Origin: an uncultured Candidatus Rokubacteria bacterium | Lineage (GTDB): Bacteria > Methylomirabilota > Methylomirabilia > Rokubacteriales > CSP1-6 | Assembly: GCA_963771355.1 (NCBI GenBank) | Contig: CAVYTA010000006.1 | Coordinates: forward strand, 416,001 to 480,000 | DNA: 64,000 nt | Reading direction: 5' to 3' | Shown here: positions 51,666 to 63,392 of the stretch, one piece after another | Numbering within the stretch: the first letter of the stretch is position 1 | How the letters are laid out: each line of letters opens with the position of its first letter | Made by a program: the position numbers and the translations under genes | The notes under the pieces: model-generated | Seen by the model: the letters and a program-made list of their open reading frames with translations, nothing else | Told to the model about the DNA's origin: nothing | Databases searched by the model: none

Positions 51666-51742
51666 GAAGAGATGAGACGTAGCCTTTTAAGTTACTAGAA
51701 ACATGATCAAAATGGATACTTCATGTGGTCTCGATCCCGGCG

Positions 51743-51772
51743 TTTCACATCTGCACGGTCGCGGTGTCTCAT
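51743..51772 (+). promoter_or_regulatory. Putative ECF-type promoter, copy 1 (TTTCAC-N13-CGGTGTCTCAT)
   Basis: Same boxes and spacing as the copy at 53317-53346; lies 10 nt upstream of the sigma ATG. Confidence 0.6.
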
Positions 51773-51782
51773 GAGTAGAGTG

Positions 51783-52310
51783 ATGGCTGACGAGGCATTC
51801 GAGATCGTGGTGGCCGCCCACCACGCCGAGATACACCGGTACCTCGTGCGCGTGACTCGACGCCCGGGGGATGCCGATGATCTGTCTCAGGAGACCTTCA
51901 TCCGGGCCTTCCGTGCGCACTCGGCCTTGCCGGCAGGGTCGAATGTCCGCGCCTGGCTCTTCACCATCGCGACGAATCTGTGTCGAAACTACTGGCGCTC
52001 GGAGTCGCGGCGTCGCCGGGCTTACGAGGCCGCCGGCGAGACCGCGGCGCACCACGAAGAAGCCGAAGGGGAGGGCGCGATGGTCATGGAGCAGGCGAGT
52101 GAGGAGATCGGGCGCATCGTCGCCGCGCTGCCGCTCCGCCAGCGACTGGCCTTCACGCTCCGCAAGGTCCACGAGCTCGAGTACGAGGCCATCGGCCGGA
52201 GCCTCGACTGCTCTCCCGATACCGCGCGGGCGCATGTCTTCCAGGCGCTGCGCAAGATCCGACGCGGGCTCGATGCCCCGGCCGGGGCCCGCACGGAGTC
52301 CAAGCGATGA
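51783..52310 (+). CDS. ECF RNA polymerase sigma factor
   Basis: Region 2 DADDLSQETFIRA..RAWLFTIATNLCRN; region 4 LPLRQRLAF..YEAIG..TARAHVFQA. Confidence 0.92.
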   Translation: MADEAFEIVVAAHHAEIHRYLVRVTRRPGDADDLSQETFIRAFRAHSALPAGSNVRAWLFTIATNLCRNYWRSESRRRRAYEAAGETAAHHEEAEGEGAMVMEQASEEIGRIVAALPLRQRLAFTLRKVHELEYEAIGRSLDCSPDTARAHVFQALRKIRRGLDAPAGARTESKR

Positions 52311-53272
52311 CCAGAGAGCCCCGATCCTGTCGTGAGATCGAGCCGGACCTGATCGCGGTGGCGACCGCCGAGGCGCCGCCCGCCGCCGCCCGCCGCGTGG
52401 AGAGCCACGTGGCGGAGTGCGCGTCCTGCCGGAGCGAGCTCGCGCAGTATCAGACGGTCGACGGGCTCGTGACCGCGTACCGAGACACGCGCGCGCTCGA
52501 GGCCGACCCCACGCTGGCCCGCGCGCAGCTCGAGAGCCGGCTCGCGGACCTGCGCAGCCGCATCATGCGCTACGGCGTGTTCGACTCTCCGCTCGGGCCC
52601 ATCGCCATCGGCGTCTCGGAGCACGGGGTGTCCATGGTGGAGTACGTACGCCCGGCCGAGCGGACGGGCGGCGGGTTGGCGCGGCGGGCGGGCGGAGAAG
52701 CGGTGGAGGACCCCCGCCGGACGGAAGGGCTCTATCGCGAGCTGGCCGACTATCTCGACGGGCGGCGCACGCGGCTGGACTGGCCGCTCGATCTCCGGCG
52801 GACCCGGAGCGACTTCCAGCGGCGCGTCCTCGAGGCCACCGCGCGTCTTCCCTATGGGGCGGTGACCTCCTATGCGGGCATCGCGCGCGAGATCGGCGCG
52901 CCGCGCGCGACCCGCGCGGTGGCCCAGGCGCTCCGCCACAATCCACTCCCCATCGTGGTCCCGTGCCACCGCGTGATCGGCAGCAGCGGCGACCTCACCG
53001 GCTATGCGGGGACGCGCATCGGGCTCAAGCGAGATCTGCTGGCGGTGGAAGGCGTTCACACCATGCCCGGTCATGGCGACTTTCACATCGAGCGGCGCGC
53101 CGTCTACTACAAGTACCTCGATGGGGGTGAGTATTGCCTGCCGACCTGTGGTGGCATTCTCGAGAAGCCACTGGGTGACTTCACGGTATTCGGCTCGCGC
53201 GACCGCGCGGAAGCGGTGGGGCTCCAGCCCTGCACGGACTGCCGGCCCGATCTGCATCCGCTCCCCGCCTGA
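52307..53272 (+). CDS. Fusion: ZAS (zf-HC2) anti-sigma domain + O6-methylguanine-DNA methyltransferase + Ada-type Zn-binding domain
   Basis: HVAECASC; SPLG..FQRRV..RAVAQAL.HNP..PCHRVI; YCLPTC..AEAVGLQPCTDCRP. Confidence 0.85.
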   Translation: MTREPRSCREIEPDLIAVATAEAPPAAARRVESHVAECASCRSELAQYQTVDGLVTAYRDTRALEADPTLARAQLESRLADLRSRIMRYGVFDSPLGPIAIGVSEHGVSMVEYVRPAERTGGGLARRAGGEAVEDPRRTEGLYRELADYLDGRRTRLDWPLDLRRTRSDFQRRVLEATARLPYGAVTSYAGIAREIGAPRATRAVAQALRHNPLPIVVPCHRVIGSSGDLTGYAGTRIGLKRDLLAVEGVHTMPGHGDFHIERRAVYYKYLDGGEYCLPTCGGILEKPLGDFTVFGSRDRAEAVGLQPCTDCRPDLHPLPA

Positions 53273-56893: not shown

Positions 56894-58408
56894 TCAGCGC
56901 CGCGGCGTCGAGCCTTCCTGCAACAGCCAGTCGATGATGGCGCCGCCGTCGTCGGCCTCGCGCGCCGGTGGCGGTGACGCCGGTGTACGCGGCGGCGGTA
57001 CCGCCCGCGTCTCCACCGAGGACGACGGCGCCTCCACCGCCGCTGGTCTCGGCAGACTCTCGGCCGCTGAGCGAGGCACTGTCGCCCTCGGGGGCGGGGA
57101 CACCGGGCTGGGCACCACGTCACGCGCGACCGGGCGCGAGGGCGGCCTCGAGGCCGGGGTTGCCGCCGGGGGGAGCGTCACCACGGGGGGCGGCGCGGGC
57201 GCGGGAGGCAGCGCGGCCGGGGGAGGCAGCGCGGGCGCGGAAGGCGGCACGGACGCGGTAGGCAATGCGGCCGGGGGAGACGGCGCGGGAGCGGGGGGCA
57301 GCGCGGCCGGGGGAGGCAGCGCGGGCGCAGACGGTAACGGCGCCTCGGCCACGGGCGGCGGCGGCGAGGCGACCTGGGTGGGTGTCGGAGCCGGCGGCGC
57401 GAGGAGCGGAACCGGGTCGGGTGCGCCGAGCCACGATCCGCCCAGTACGATCGCCACGCCGCCCACGACCACGAGCACGCCGGCGGCCAGCCAGACTCGC
57501 TTCCCGACTCCAGCACGCCCCCGATGATCCGCGCCCCGCCCCTGCCGGCCGGTCCTGTTGAATGGGCTGATCTCGCTCCAGAGATCGTTGAAGAGATCGG
57601 TGACGTCGCGGTGGCGCCGGGACGGCTCCGGTGCCAGCGCCCGCATGACGATCCGTTCGAGGGTCCGCGTGACTTCGGGCCGGAGCTTGCGAACCGCCAG
57701 GGTACCGCCGCGTCGCCGCCTCGCCAGATGCGTGCCCGGCGGCCGGCCCGTCAGCATCTCGTAGAGCAGCGCGCCCACCGCGAATACATCGCTCTGATTC
57801 GTGGCCTCGCCGGTGAGGGATTGCTCCGGCGCCTGATAGGGCGTGGTGAGTCCCCCCACCGTGCGTGCCCCCCGGCGGCTCAGCCAGCGTGCTGTCCGCA
57901 CCCAGTCGAGGCCGAACTGGGTGAGCTTGACGGTCTCCTCCCCTCCCACCAGCGCGACGTTCTGCGGGCTGAGACAGCCGTGAATCACGCCCAGCATGTG
58001 GGCGACTTCGAGGGGCTCGGCGATGCCGATGGCGAGGCGTACCGCGCGCTCCGGCCGGAAGGGCCCGTCGCGCCGCAAGGCTTCCGCGAGCGTCACCCCT
58101 TCGGGCGGCTCGAGCGCGAGGTAGAGCGCGCCGCCGGGCGTGACGCCGCACTCGTACACCGCGGCGATCGAGGGACAGCGGGCGGAGAGCGCGACGAGCC
58201 GGCCCGCGTGCTCGCGCATGGACCGGACAAGCTCCTCGTCGCGGGCGGCATCGTGAGCGAGGACGCGCAGAGTCACCCGCGCGCGGGTGTCGGCGCGCTC
58301 GGCGAGGTACAGGGCATCCTGGACCCCGGGCACGAGCGTCTCGATTGTCCGGTACGGGCCGTAGCCCGTGGGCGTGGGCTCGGTCGTAGGTACGGAGGGA
58401 AGCGTCAC
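56894..58408 (-). CDS. Membrane-anchored Ser/Thr kinase-like protein with degenerate catalytic motifs and a Pro-rich tail
   Basis: YQAPEQ and SDVFAVGALLYEMLTG conserved; VTLR, HGC and QFG replace VAxK, HRD and DFG; TM helix followed by Pro/Ala repeats. Confidence 0.85.
   Translation of the reverse strand: MTLPSVPTTEPTPTGYGPYRTIETLVPGVQDALYLAERADTRARVTLRVLAHDAARDEELVRSMREHAGRLVALSARCPSIAAVYECGVTPGGALYLALEPPEGVTLAEALRRDGPFRPERAVRLAIGIAEPLEVAHMLGVIHGCLSPQNVALVGGEETVKLTQFGLDWVRTARWLSRRGARTVGGLTTPYQAPEQSLTGEATNQSDVFAVGALLYEMLTGRPPGTHLARRRRGGTLAVRKLRPEVTRTLERIVMRALAPEPSRRHRDVTDLFNDLWSEISPFNRTGRQGRGADHRGRAGVGKRVWLAAGVLVVVGGVAIVLGGSWLGAPDPVPLLAPPAPTPTQVASPPPPVAEAPLPSAPALPPPAALPPAPAPSPPAALPTASVPPSAPALPPPAALPPAPAPPPVVTLPPAATPASRPPSRPVARDVVPSPVSPPPRATVPRSAAESLPRPAAVEAPSSSVETRAVPPPRTPASPPPAREADDGGAIIDWLLQEGSTPRR
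57191..57334 (-). repeat. Intragenic repeat, 90-bp period, encoding PSAPALPPPAALPPAPAP twice
   Basis: GGCAGCGCGGCCGGGGGAGGCAGCGCGGGCGC occurs at 57207 and 57297. Confidence 0.8.
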
Positions 58409-59447: not shown

Positions 59448-59702
59448 GACATCCTCCTCGTTGCGACGGGACTTACCTCCCGCGGGTGCGGTGGCGCAGG
59501 ATAGGAGGATAGATGTGAGACTGTCAAGGGGGCCTTACATCAAGAACTGTCGGAAACATTGCCTTTTTGAGGGATGCGCAGGACTTACCGTCAGATAACT
59601 AGCTGAATTAATTGACAAGTTATAATCAGCACGGAACGTGCATATAACCCGTCCGAGCCGACCGACCGATGACTCTCATGCGAATTACCTGTCGGCAGAA
59701 GA

Positions 59703-59749: not shown

Positions 59750-59971
59750 ATGAGCGAGCACAAGCCAGAGTCAAACGAGATTCGACGCGTCGCCGCCGAC
59801 AAGACGGGCGACAAGGCGTCCTCGCCCAGCCGCCGGCGGGCCCTCAAGGCCGCGCTGGCTGCGACCCCCATCATCATGTCGATCAAGAGTCGGCCCGCCT
59901 TCGCGGGCCCCGCCTGCGATCAGGCTACGACCAGCTGCCAGCAATCCTCCCGTCTGTCCAGTGTCCACTAG
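59750..59971 (+). CDS. Putative RiPP precursor / Tat-like small peptide (73 aa)
   Basis: SD; SRRRALK..PAFA|GPACDQATTSCQQSSRLSSVH; lies immediately upstream of PqqD/RRE and kinase genes. Confidence 0.7.
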   Translation: MSEHKPESNEIRRVAADKTGDKASSPSRRRALKAALAATPIIMSIKSRPAFAGPACDQATTSCQQSSRLSSVH

Positions 59972-60023
59972 GCCGTAAGAAGAAGTAAGCGAAGGTCGCC
60001 CCGTCCCACCCTCCTCACCCCGG

Positions 60024-60332
60024 ATTCTCTCGGCTCCACCCGATTCCTCCGAAACGAGCTGGCAGCTGGCCGAGGGCTGTCGTCTGCACTGGAAGGCCTG
60101 GGACGACGAGTTCGTGATCTTCGACGAAGGCTCGGGTGATACGCACCTGCTCGACCCGCTGGCCGCCGAGTTCCTGAAGGTCCTCGAAGAGTCGCCGGGG
60201 GAGGTGCCCGGCCTCGCCCGTCGGCTCGGGGCGCGGCTCGATCTTGCGCGCGACGCCGATCTCACCCGGCGCGTGCGCGAGCTGGTGGAGCGGTTCGTCG
60301 CCGTCGGCCTGGTGGAAGCCGCGCATCCGTGA
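60024..60332 (+). CDS. PqqD family / RiPP recognition element protein (HPr-rel-A system type); start uncertain
   Basis: In-frame WQLAEGCRLHWKAWDDEFVIFDEGSGDTHLLDPLAAEFL..RELVERFVAVGLV; frame open from 59979, first canonical start only at 60114. Confidence 0.8.
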   Translation: MLSAPPDSSETSWQLAEGCRLHWKAWDDEFVIFDEGSGDTHLLDPLAAEFLKVLEESPGEVPGLARRLGARLDLARDADLTRRVRELVERFVAVGLVEAAHP

Positions 60333-61247
60333 AGCTGGGTGCGCTGACCCTCCCCGAGCTCACCGCGCGGCTCGCGCGCGGCGGCCTCGACATGGACACC
60401 GGGCCGTTCGTGGTGCGCATCGAGACGGAGATCCCCGCGCTCGCCGAGGAGATCCATCTCCTCTACGGCGATTTCTCCGTGGACGAGGGCGGTGGCCTGG
60501 CCGACTTCCACGTGTCGGTCCGCCGCCCGGCGGGACCGCTCGGGTTACGCCGGTGGTGGCGTCAACAGGTCAAGGTCTATCTCGATGAGGCGCGTCCCTT
60601 CGAGCCCCTGCCCATTGACATGGCGGTGCCGGTGCTGGAGTGGAGCATCAACTGGTGCGCCGCCACCCAGGCCAATCAGTACGTGATGATCCACGCCGCG
60701 GTGCTCGAGCGCGACCGGCGGGTCCTCGTGTTGCCCGGCGTCAGCGGAGCTGGCAAGAGCACGTTGTGCGCGGGCCTGGCCCTGCGAGGCTGGCGGCTCT
60801 TCTCGGACGAGTTCGCCCTGATTCGTCCGGCCGACGGGCAGGTAGATCCATGGCCGCGGCCCATCAGCCTCAAGAACGACTCCATCGAGGTGATCCGACG
60901 ATGGGCTCCCGACTCGCGCCTGAGCACGCTCGTGCCCAATACCAAGAAGGGCACGATGGCGCACCTGCGCCCGCCCGCCGGGAGTGTCGAGCGGGTGGGG
61001 GAGCCGGCGATGCCGGCGTGGATCGTGTTCCCCACCTTCGCGCGCGAGGCGGCGCCGCAGCTCGACTCGCCTGCCGCGCGCCCGCGCCTTCTTCAAGCTC
61101 GCTGACTGCTCGTTCAACTACGAGTCCCTCGGCCTTCGAGGCTTCACCACGCTTTCGCGTATGATCGACGGGTGCGACGCCTACGAGTTCACCTACTCGA
61201 GCCTCGAGGACGCCCAGAGCCTGCTCGGCGCGCTGCCGCTGCCCTAG
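60329..61247 (+). CDS. HPr kinase-related kinase (HprK-related kinase A type); apparent +1 frameshift at ~61064
   Basis: IHAAVL, Walker A GVSGAGKST, FSDEFAL and PRPISLKN; C-terminus RARAFFKLADCSFNY..YSSLEDA in the next frame. Confidence 0.85.
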
Positions 61248-61260
61248 GGTCGGCCTCCTG

Positions 61261-62331
61261 ATGGACCGCGCGTTGCTTCTCCGCGCGCTCCGCGAGCCCG
61301 CGTCGATGGGCGGCCTGGCGCCCGCCGAGTGGGACGTCCTCCTCCGCCAGGGCCGGCACATGGGCGCGCTCGGCCGTCTCTGCGCCCTCGCCGCGGCGGC
61401 CGGCGTGCTGCCCGCGGTGCCGTCCCGGGTGCGCGTGCGCCTGGAGGCGGCGCTGGAAGACGTGGAGCAGCAGCACCGGCTCATCCGGTGGGAAGTCATC
61501 CGCCTCCGCCGAGCGCTGGTCGGGACCGGCGTGCCCCTCGTGCTGCTCAAGGGCGCCGCGTATCTCCACGCCGGGCTGCCAGCCTCACGCGGCCGCCAGT
61601 TCTCGGATGTCGACATCCTGGTGCCGCGCGCGAGCCTCCACGAGGTCGAGGCTGCCCTGCTCCGCGAAGGCTGGAAAATGGAAGAGATCAGCGCGTACGA
61701 CGAGCGCTACTACCGGGAATGGTCACACGAGCTTCCGCCGCTGGTGCACCCGAAGCGGCACGTGATGCTGGACGTGCATCACAATATCCTGCCGCCGACC
61801 GGGCGGCTGCGACCGGATCCGCGGCGGCTGCTGGAGGCGACGGTCCCCGTCGCGGCGGACGGACTCCGGGTGCTCGGGCCCGCGGACATGGTGCTGCACA
61901 GCGCCTGCCACCTCCTCCAGTCGGGCGAGCACGACAAGAGCCTGCGCGACCTCGGGGACCTGGACGCGCTGATACGGCAGTTCGCCGCCGCACCGCGCTT
62001 CGGTGACGAGCTGGCCGCGCGCGCGGCCGCCCTCGACCTCGAGCGGCCGCTCTACTACGCGCTGCGCTTCGCCGCGCAGCTGATCGGCACGCCGATTCCC
62101 GAGGCCAGTGCCCGCGCCGTCCGACACGCGGCGCCCCCCGCCCCCGTTCGCGCGGCCATGGACCGTCTCTTCGCAGCCACCATCCAGCCCGCACCTCCAC
62201 TGGATCCGCCGGGTCGCGTCAGGCTGGCGCGGGCGGTGCTGACGGCTCGTTACCACTGGCTGCGCATGCCCCCCTCGCTCCTTGTCCGTCATCTCGCGCA
62301 CAAGATCGGAGGAAGGAGGAAACGCGGGTGA
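61261..62331 (+). CDS. Nucleotidyltransferase family protein (NTP_transf_5-like)
   Basis: LLKGAAY, RQFSDVDILV, DVHH and LRDLGDLD motifs. Confidence 0.88.
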   Translation: MDRALLLRALREPASMGGLAPAEWDVLLRQGRHMGALGRLCALAAAAGVLPAVPSRVRVRLEAALEDVEQQHRLIRWEVIRLRRALVGTGVPLVLLKGAAYLHAGLPASRGRQFSDVDILVPRASLHEVEAALLREGWKMEEISAYDERYYREWSHELPPLVHPKRHVMLDVHHNILPPTGRLRPDPRRLLEATVPVAADGLRVLGPADMVLHSACHLLQSGEHDKSLRDLGDLDALIRQFAAAPRFGDELAARAAALDLERPLYYALRFAAQLIGTPIPEASARAVRHAAPPAPVRAAMDRLFAATIQPAPPLDPPGRVRLARAVLTARYHWLRMPPSLLVRHLAHKIGGRRKRG

Positions 62332-63392
62332 GGAGGCGCCGGCCCCGTCCGTGGCGCCGCGGGCTGCCGGGGCTGGTGGCGCTGGGCGCGGCGATGGCAC
62401 TGACCGCGTGCAGCGGGCTTCCCTGCCGCCTCGGCGCGCCCGCGGAGTTCGTCTCCCTCGGCAAGAATCCCTTCGCCGCCGCGCAGCCCACGCCGGTGGG
62501 CCGATACCTCCATACCCTCGAGGGCTGGCAAGGCGAGCTCTACATGGGCTATGGCGACTACGACGAGAATACCGGGCCCATCGAGGTGTCCGCATACAAC
62601 CCGCGGTGGAGCTCCTACGGCACCAAGCTCCGCTTTCCCACGGAGGCGATCGAGCTCTTTCGCCCCATCGGTGACCGTCTCTACGCGCCCGCCATCGATC
62701 CCCGCGGCGATGGGCCTTCCGCCGCCGTCGCCGTCGGCGAGCCGGACGGCCGCTGGTCCAACAACAAGGACGTGTGGATGACACACGTCTTCGATGTCGC
62801 CACCTTCGACGGGACTGACCTCTGGCTCGTCGGCTCGCGCAAGACTCAGGCGATCGCGGTGCGCAGCCGGGACGGCGGGCGCACATGGGAAACGGCGCTC
62901 GCGCTCGAGCCCCGGGGCGCCGACGGTGACTTTGCCCGCTTTCATTTCGTGTTCGTGCACGGCGGCCGCCTCTACGTCCAGGCGCAGGACCGGCGGGGCG
63001 GGATGTTCCCTCGCTCGAACGCCTTCGACGGCAACGGCTGGACGGACGGGCCCAATCTCCGGCCCATCCCGAACACGGGGGCCAAGCCCCTGGCCGTCGC
63101 GGGCGAGACCGTCTACTTCGGCGCCCGCGGCATCATGGCCTTCGATGGGCGCGCCGTCCGGCTCGCGCGGCCGCCCCAGACCCGCATCCACGATCTCGTC
63201 GTCGCCGAGGGGATCCTCTACGTGCTCGATGGGCGAGAAGTGCTCGGCACTCAGGATCTCGCGTGGTGGATCCCGGTGGCCACCGCGCCCGCCGGGACCA
63301 CGAGCATCGGCGTCCTGGACGGGTATCTCTACGCGGGCACCGTGGAGTCCGAGCTCTTTCGCTACTGCCGGCCGGTCCGCCCCCTTCGGTGA
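62328..63392 (+). CDS. Putative lipoprotein, beta-propeller-like
   Basis: GTGA overlap with the nucleotidyltransferase gene; lipobox LTAC; Asp-box SRDGGRTW; repeated G.LY strands. Confidence 0.65.
   Translation: MRRRRPRPWRRGLPGLVALGAAMALTACSGLPCRLGAPAEFVSLGKNPFAAAQPTPVGRYLHTLEGWQGELYMGYGDYDENTGPIEVSAYNPRWSSYGTKLRFPTEAIELFRPIGDRLYAPAIDPRGDGPSAAVAVGEPDGRWSNNKDVWMTHVFDVATFDGTDLWLVGSRKTQAIAVRSRDGGRTWETALALEPRGADGDFARFHFVFVHGGRLYVQAQDRRGGMFPRSNAFDGNGWTDGPNLRPIPNTGAKPLAVAGETVYFGARGIMAFDGRAVRLARPPQTRIHDLVVAEGILYVLDGREVLGTQDLAWWIPVATAPAGTTSIGVLDGYLYAGTVESELFRYCRPVRPLR

Follow-up and report, generated by a model that had tools for sequence, protein, structure and literature searches.

What do the enzymes of a peptide-modifying operon act upon when the operon holds neither a cyclase nor a peptidase nor an exporter? 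This question is raised by five genes at positions 59750-63392 of a 64,000-nucleotide stretch of DNA from an uncultured Candidatus Rokubacteria bacterium (contig CAVYTA010000006.1, positions 416,001 to 480,000; hereafter the window). They comprise a short open reading frame (ORF), P0001, followed by genes for a recognition element (RRE) of the type that binds the leaders of peptides made on the ribosome and modified after translation (RiPPs), an HprK-related kinase, a nucleotidyltransferase and a lipoprotein. From its sequence family and gene order, P0001 is very likely the substrate of the RRE, the kinase and the transferase. We further consider it probable, with some reserve, that this precursor is guided by the RRE, modified by the kinase and the transferase, exported by the twin-arginine translocation (Tat) system and cut by signal peptidase, to serve as an accessory of an exopolysaccharide (EPS) programme. 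The presence of all five genes on the + strand was confirmed:

59750..59971, + strand: precursor P0001, 73 amino acids (aa), with a 52-aa Tat-like/RRE-type leader and a 21-aa core
60003..60332, + strand: RRE / PqqD-family chaperone (TIGR04353, PF05402), putative GTC start
60329..61247, + strand: HprK-related kinase A (TIGR04352), interrupted in the window by a single surplus base near 61064-61066
61261..62331, + strand: NTP_transf_5 nucleotidyltransferase (PF14907)
62328..63392, + strand: lipoprotein with lipobox, predicted beta-propeller, a clade-restricted fifth gene

The precursor family and its candidate modifying enzymes

Profile scans bore out the composition that the original prediction had proposed for the operon. 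The kinase matched TIGR04352 with 305.8 bits (cut-off 200) and the adjoining RRE matched TIGR04353 with 59.4 bits (cut-off 35) as well as PF05402, which identifies the pair as the HPr-rel-A system that the original prediction had named; the assignment of the transferase to NTP_transf_5 likewise held (PF14907, 190.8 bits). HPr-rel-A is so far a name only. RefSeq, too, has the genes in this order, the upstream one being annotated as hypothetical; the precursor belongs to no NCBIfam or Pfam family, and no substrate, product or experimental study was found in open-access main texts, so that the novelty may look different in the light of supplements and subscription papers. The lipoprotein, too, had no NCBIfam or Pfam match above cut-off, and Atlas searches returned hypothetical clusters only. 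Genes for a cyclase, a B2 peptidase, a YcaO protein, a radical SAM protein, a Lan enzyme and an exporter were looked for in the operon, and none was found. A lasso pathway acting in trans was ruled out: PF13471, the B2 peptidase family, has no match anywhere in the genome (99.8% complete), and the cyclase-like matches are two amidotransferases in a distant EPS locus. Their scores with the lasso-cyclase model, 259 and 262, stay well below its cut-off (525), and they are better matched by TIGR03108/TIGR01536.

A survey of loci with the kinase gave 75 genome loci, in which the transferase and the RRE are always present (75/75 each) and the lipoprotein is found in 4/75. Close relatives are Rokubacteria metagenome-assembled genomes. 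A leader profile iterated from residues 19-55 of P0001 was matched in 69/75 loci by an ORF that immediately precedes the RRE; a further ORF, more distant from the RRE on the upstream side of one locus, makes the total 70. Inspection by eye of the six loci missed by the profile showed a clear leader ORF in three, while the other three are truncated by contig ends, which brings the leader to 72/75 loci; similar ORFs upstream of homologous clusters, which the original prediction had proposed to look for, are thus the rule. The kinase family and the leader alignment were also searched separately in 151 genomes of the order. A strong TIGR04352 match occurred in 8/151, with a leader directly upstream in 8/8; the weight rests on G051, G131, G050 and G005, because G000, G080, G098 and G140 are identical or almost identical to rows from which the profile was trained. 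The leader search gave 23 matches: the 8 strong-kinase genomes, 8 more short ORFs that have an RRE, a transferase or a more distant kinase within about 2.5 kb (in G043, about 7 kb), one (G082) without such genes nearby, and 6 weak ones that are ordinary long Tat proteins. In the window's own genome the profile matches P0001 only (E 3e-12; next 0.096), and both plasmid cassettes inspected, from Vibrio and Sphingomonas, have a leader ORF. With 2358 clusters (50% identity) retrieved by the profile at E up to 0.001, the weaker of them perhaps including ordinary Tat proteins, this is probably a large class.

The catalytic motifs of both enzymes are intact. In the kinase these are His122, Walker A (137-145) and Asp160-Glu161, all of them kept in an alignment of 76 homologous ORFs; the D-x-D of the transferase (Asp116, Asp118) is conserved across 78 aligned homologs. 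Searches of PDB sequences with either enzyme gave nothing useful, and the best natural PDB matches of the RRE profile were the lasso RREs TbiB1 and TfuB1 (weak, E ~0.002). In the window the kinase is split, frame 1 covering profile positions 2-225 and another frame 223-279. The base at 61064/61066 is absent from contigs of three of four runs, the fourth run being without cover there, and one contig that lacks it differs from the window in 2 letters over 3193 bases. The frameshift is an assembly error, and because the extra base is missing in three of four runs the gene is intact in nature; a pseudogene was ruled out by these short-read contigs and by a metagenomic relative with an unbroken kinase of 305 aa. 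One RNA run has contigs over the four genes from the RRE to the lipoprotein and, among the pieces listed, none over the precursor; since a contig is no proof of transcription, these were not used as evidence.

The RRE gene of the window has no ATG, GTG or TTG ahead of its conserved first strands, the first canonical start being at 60114. Within 59991-60113 a GTC follows a Shine-Dalgarno-like site, and the putative start was placed there. The same lack of ATG/GTG/TTG before the conserved first strands was seen at L001-L004, L081, L090, L092 and L106, and most loci without a canonical RRE start have GTC or GTA 6-9 nt after a Shine-Dalgarno-like site. This pattern suggests a non-canonical start, which would keep the RRE level low; a canonical start is present in 69/75 loci overall. 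A fusion of precursor and RRE by read-through was not adopted, because the two are in frame in several relatives and not in the window.

Leader, core and relation to known peptides

The two conserved parts of the precursor are:

59828..59905, + strand: conserved leader block (residues 27-52) with twin Arg, a hydrophobic stretch with Pro40, basic residues and A-x-A
59933..59959, + strand: core motif S-x3-S-x2-[LM]-S, with Ser62, Ser66 and Ser70 as candidate modification sites, flanked by Cys56 and Cys63

The precursor ORF is free of indels and confirmed by contigs of two runs; an alternative-frame C-terminus, as found in one close relative, was ruled out by the agreement of both runs with the window. 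Across 12 relatives the leader carries 77 synonymous against 38 non-synonymous codon changes, with 94/144 base changes at third positions. A Tat signal is made up of twin Arg, a hydrophobic stretch, basic residues and A-x-A. The two Arg and the Pro are invariant in 70/70 profile rows, an invariance of the Arg pair that is partly built into the search profile by which the 70 leaders were selected. The hydrophobic stretch has a mean hydropathy of 1.3, the basic residues and the A-x-A end are kept, and tatC is present in the window's genome. At E up to 1, 25/70 leaders match the Tat profile PF10518 and 13/70 match TIGR01409. The extended motif P-x-[IV]-[LM]-[TS]-[LIF] occurs in 56/70 of the profile-selected leaders versus 0/75 ordinary Tat-like signals of the same genome, and its Pro part resembles the Px[LVIFA] portion of the motif by which the leaders of lasso peptides and linear polyphosphorylated peptides (LPPs) bind the RRE. 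The leader thus resembles a Tat signal in which an invariant Pro motif of the RRE type is embedded, and a Tat-like leader would most simply explain an operon without protease and exporter.

A second Rokubacterial subfamily, with F or Y before the Pro, bridges to the published motif; its profile gave two new matches adjoining distant kinases (G013, G073), plus three others. A second cassette type was also seen in other Rokubacterial genomes (L158-L166, L122, L187, L192). Its HprK-like kinases and its transferases are distant ones, and its short precursors carry a twin Arg, F/Y near the Pro and G-S directly after the A-x-A site; the L164 copy sits within an EPS locus.

Behind the leader the conservation is confined to serines. 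The 45 close homologs of the precursor give 39 distinct cores, and S-x3-S-x2-[LM]-S is present in 38 of them (shuffle mean 0.2), the lone exception being a relative with two extra bases in the precursor gene; length and sequence vary otherwise. The distant cores (n=65) are 16-194 aa long with a median of 113, so the small-peptide substrate that had been proposed does not describe most of the family. They have Ser at +2 to +4 in 56/65 cases and [ST][CA]xxS within the last 30 residues in 47/65 (control 3.3). A protein search with the leader only, from whose best 150 proteins 146 were parsed and 4 dropped, agrees with this picture: Ser is at +3 in 108/146, [ST][CA]xxS lies in the last 30 aa in 96/146 (control 6.6), the triple-Ser form is rare (6/146), at least two Cys occur in 135/146 cores and a transmembrane-like segment in 5/146. 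From the counts in close and distant cores, the family has one or two serine sites, which in the window's clade take a compact triple form. Apart from the serines no core residue is conserved, and as candidate target sites the serines would suit a lasso-type peptide kinase. With a conserved family tied to HPr-rel-A and conserved serines, the proposal that the upstream ORF is the precursor of the system gains support.

The same features bear on a different reading, in which the precursor is modified and remains in the cytoplasm or membrane, its twin Arg and hydrophobic stretch serving only for recognition by the enzymes and the RRE, and the phosphopeptide regulates or primes polysaccharide synthesis. 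The absence of the Pro motif from the 75 ordinary Tat-like signals fits such a role, as does the modest number of leaders recognised by a Tat profile, the window's own not among them; the invariant Arg pair, the hydropathy of the stretch and the kept A-x-A site point instead to export, as do the cores with at least two Cys, which are typical of exported proteins. A dedicated peptidase or exporter was not found among the 62 of 141 recurring neighbour representatives that were scanned, the recurring ABC ATPase being of the sugar-import type. We consider a cytoplasmic product improbable.

The LPPs (Popov et al. 2026, PMC13381572) are described there as linear, RRE-guided, serine-polyphosphorylated peptides encoded near polysaccharide loci; the kinase LppK, annotated TIGR04352, polyphosphorylates Ser3, and LppN is annotated PF14907. 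The cassettes studied here share with them a discrete RRE, a TIGR04352 kinase and a PF14907 transferase without a cyclase, precursors with a conserved N-terminus and a variable C-terminus (35-200 aa in LPPs) and the link to polysaccharide loci, and the Ser3 target parallels the +3 Ser of most distant members. In contrast, LPP clusters have an SpI-like peptidase and an MsbA-like pump, both missing from the window cassette and its flanks, and of the LPP leader YxxPxVLxHQxIxFETxxS the window leader shares P-x-[IV]-[LM] only, with a small residue in place of Y. LPPs are described as restricted to Bacillota, whereas here the hosts are Gram-negative, the leader has a twin Arg and the core of the window's clade carries the triple Ser; the main text makes no mention of Tat, Proteobacteria or PEP-CTERM. 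From these comparisons the window cassette appears LPP-like in its working and outside the LPPs in peptidase, pump, leader and host range, that is, a putative Tat-type variant. A non-lasso phosphorylated class such as the original prediction inferred is thus already on record in the LPPs (PMC13381572).

Phosphorylated lasso peptides likewise combine an HprK-like kinase with a nucleotidyltransferase-like gene (PMC6993621, PMC10368454), together with a macrolactam cyclase, a B2 peptidase and an ABC exporter that the window lacks. For pseudomycoidin the kinase PsmK is reported to act on a precursor serine and PsmN to be required for a hexose on the phosphoserine (PMC6993621), and in the Bsf system the RRE is reported to boost the action of the kinase BsfK on a precursor serine (PMC10368454). 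Neither Tat-signal RiPP leaders nor PEP-CTERM-linked PqqD/kinase systems were found reported in open-access main texts, where the PF14907 literature was unrelated and that on Rokubacteria RiPPs consisted of surveys.

Upstream DNA and the exopolysaccharide regulon

Three elements were recognised upstream of the operon:

59522-59539, + strand: looser second copy of motif 1
59548..59564, + strand: PEP-CTERM-box-like enhancer, motif 1, predicted as a likely PrsR site, conserved in 12 aligned Rokubacterial upstream regions
59628..59642, + strand: sigma-54-like -24/-12 element, a perfect palindrome, conserved in 5/5 and 12/12 aligned loci

The upstream DNA of 12 Rokubacterial cassettes shares the 17-nt motif, a conserved A/T-rich block, presumably a candidate site for integration host factor, and the sigma-54-like site about 63 nt on. 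The PEP-CTERM box of Haft et al. 2006 (PMC1569441) is described as a 17-nt motif 1, a spacer near 63 nt and a sigma-54 motif 2, and, in the parts drawn on, the element is given for Proteobacteria only. Motif 1, the spacer of about 63 nt, the sigma-54-like site, the regulators and the exosortases are common to this PrsK-PrsR-PrsT regulon (PMC1569441) and the window's genome, the likeness of motif 1 being judged from the paper's text (17 nt, 3' TTTACA) and not from its logo. PrsR, PrsK, exosortases and rpoN are all encoded in the genome, with the EPS locus about 240 kb from the operon.

The composite of enhancer and promoter occurs at 11 sites in the genome, with spacers of 63-74 nt, versus 0-3 in 10 shuffles. 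Eight of the other 10 sites precede ORFs with a signal-like start (by eye), and four of these ORFs have or adjoin a PEP-CTERM-like tail, one being confirmed by TIGR02595; a hidden Markov model found 4 PEP-CTERM proteins and a regular expression none. Unlike PEP-CTERM proteins, which have a tail and anchor, the window precursor has neither a PEP-CTERM tail nor a membrane anchor. Motif 1 lies upstream of 30/65 homologous precursor genes (shuffles 0.42), 4 of the 30 being from the clade that defined it, and the full composite of only 7 of 65. In the window's clade the first G of the -24 pair is replaced, whereas GG at -24 is present in two more distant Rokubacterial cassettes and in 11/67 loci. 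A looser sigma-54 pattern gave 20/67 in forward and 11 in reverse orientation; because it is near-palindromic, only the strict count was used. Enhancer and sigma-54-like site would tie the operon to the exopolysaccharide regulon although the EPS locus is distant, and the cassette itself is accessory. As a separate observation, near-identical PEP-CTERM-box-like promoters stand before short secreted Gly/Ser-repeat ORFs at C5:1003018 (+) and C6:696686 (-) of G000.

A kinase beside a nucleotidyltransferase is also the standard logic of sugar activation. The two enzymes might make an activated sugar or another small molecule for exopolysaccharide, with the RRE as an export chaperone only and the precursor unmodified. 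This would agree with the PEP-CTERM/EPS marker found in 41/75 loci (34/54 among loci of at least 12 kb) and with the reported inactivity of LppN on its peptide (PMC13381572); the characterised kinases compared here (LppK, BsfK and PsmK) all act, according to the accounts cited, on a peptide serine, conservation in the core is limited to serines, and in the window's clade the cassette stands apart from any EPS genes. We hold sugar activation to be a shade less probable than a cytoplasmic product.

Proposed pathway, lipoprotein and flanking genes

The reading favoured here, Tat export of an RRE-guided and modified precursor, would proceed as follows. As the upstream DNA suggests, the cassette would be co-expressed with PEP-CTERM surface proteins under PrsR and sigma-54. 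By analogy with lasso and LPP structures, the P-x-[IV]-[LM] segment of the leader would dock on the RRE, and the docked RRE would also shield the Tat signal's hydrophobic part for as long as modification is under way. The kinase would (poly)phosphorylate the core, most likely at Ser62/66/70, in the manner of LppK, BsfK and PsmK, and the transferase would possibly add a sugar or a nucleotide, PsmN pointing weakly to a hexose on the phosphate. Tat export and a cut by the general signal peptidase after Ala52 would then leave a product of 21 residues, possibly disulfide-closed, in the periplasm or matrix. The transferase step is the weakest, because among the accounts cited PsmN is the sole evidence for the function of its family and LppN was inactive. 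In 13/75 loci (L006, L007, L009, L014, L015, L021, L022, L033, L041, L057, L062, L074 and L075) a serine protease of the trypsin-like kind is encoded close to the cassette and could process the exported product in those lineages.

Several points weigh against this pathway. The window's leader matches neither PF10518 nor TIGR01409 (E up to 1) and has Ala where Phe is usual, and the leader of its clade is without the aromatic residue of [YW]xxP that LppB needs, which speaks against carrying the binding mode of LPPs over unchanged. Positions +2 to +4 of the window core are without Ser, so that the +2/+3 Ser kept in 56/65 distant members is missing, and a few short distant cores (e.g. L008, L020 and L062) show no clear Ser motif. 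The sigma-54-like site of the window misses the first G of the -24 GG pair, PrsK was found in 6/8 cassette genomes (the two without it are 81% and 89% complete), and 23/29 PrsK genomes are without the cassette. Finally, LppN is reported to have given no product in a heterologous host (PMC13381572).

If the pathway is correct, RRE-guided RiPP logic would be wired into housekeeping export and a cluster protease and pump would be needless, which would explain why mining tools overlook such clusters. The HPr-rel-A pair, until now a database label, gains a candidate substrate, candidate residues, an exit route and a regulator, and the system offers a new handle on the function of PF14907 enzymes and on the matrix output of the PEP-CTERM regulon; the short core of the window lends itself to easy synthesis and mass spectrometry. 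A bolder form, which we put forward tentatively and regard as rather unlikely, has a Tat signal doubling as the RRE-binding RiPP leader of a widespread protein phosphoglycosylation. The RRE would be a proofreading chaperone that delays export until the Ser is phosphorylated and sugar-capped, the product would be an EPS primer or anchor in PEP-CTERM biofilm regulons, and the 21-residue triple-Ser core of the window would be the minimal form.

The lipoprotein, for which the role of receptor or immunity factor proposed in the original prediction gains no support, is modelled by AlphaFold as a beta-propeller (pLDDT 95.2, alignment-based; single-sequence fold pLDDT 33), with generic Kelch-like matches only, at 10-20% identity. 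A lipobox is present in 42/50 close homologs. The gene follows that of the transferase in 20/24 metagenomic loci; of the other four, one adjoins the end of a contig and three are distant homologs in different surroundings. The lipoprotein may be a co-expressed surface protein, an addition probably specific to the clade. The least probable of the alternatives is a diffusible toxin or signal peptide for which the lipoprotein would act as receptor or immunity protein: the synteny in 20/24 metagenomic loci, a fold that can bind peptides and a short core of variable length in the same clade speak for it, and against it stand the rarity of the lipoprotein among the genome loci, its absence from the Rokubacterial cassettes G131, G050 and G005, which have short cores too, the fusion of distant homologs to PKD, Calx-beta or dockerin domains in unrelated contexts, the reported lack of antibacterial activity of pseudomycoidin and paeninodin (PMC6993621), and a synteny that may reflect inheritance because the clade also shares other flanking genes. 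In an alignment of 95 lipoprotein sequences (24% mean column identity), the polar residues Asp50, Glu79, Asp97, His126, Asp129 and Arg177 are invariant (numbering from 62409, window 62409-63389), which hints at a binding or catalytic pocket.

The operon is flanked by a divergent TAXI-family gene on one side and a convergent SDR-like ORF on the other. Behind the TAXI-family gene, at 56894-58408 on the - strand, a Ser/Thr kinase-like protein (PF00069) is encoded. The catalytic Lys, the HRD Asp and the DFG Asp, the usual residues of Ser/Thr kinases, appear substituted (motifs at residues 44, 143 and 162), and the protein is likely a pseudokinase. Further away, at 51723-53272, an ORF resembling ECF sigma factors is followed by one that resembles, by eye, an anti-sigma zinc-finger fused to an Ada/Ogt-like methyltransferase. 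The synteny of the TAXI-family and pseudokinase-like genes is kept in close relatives.

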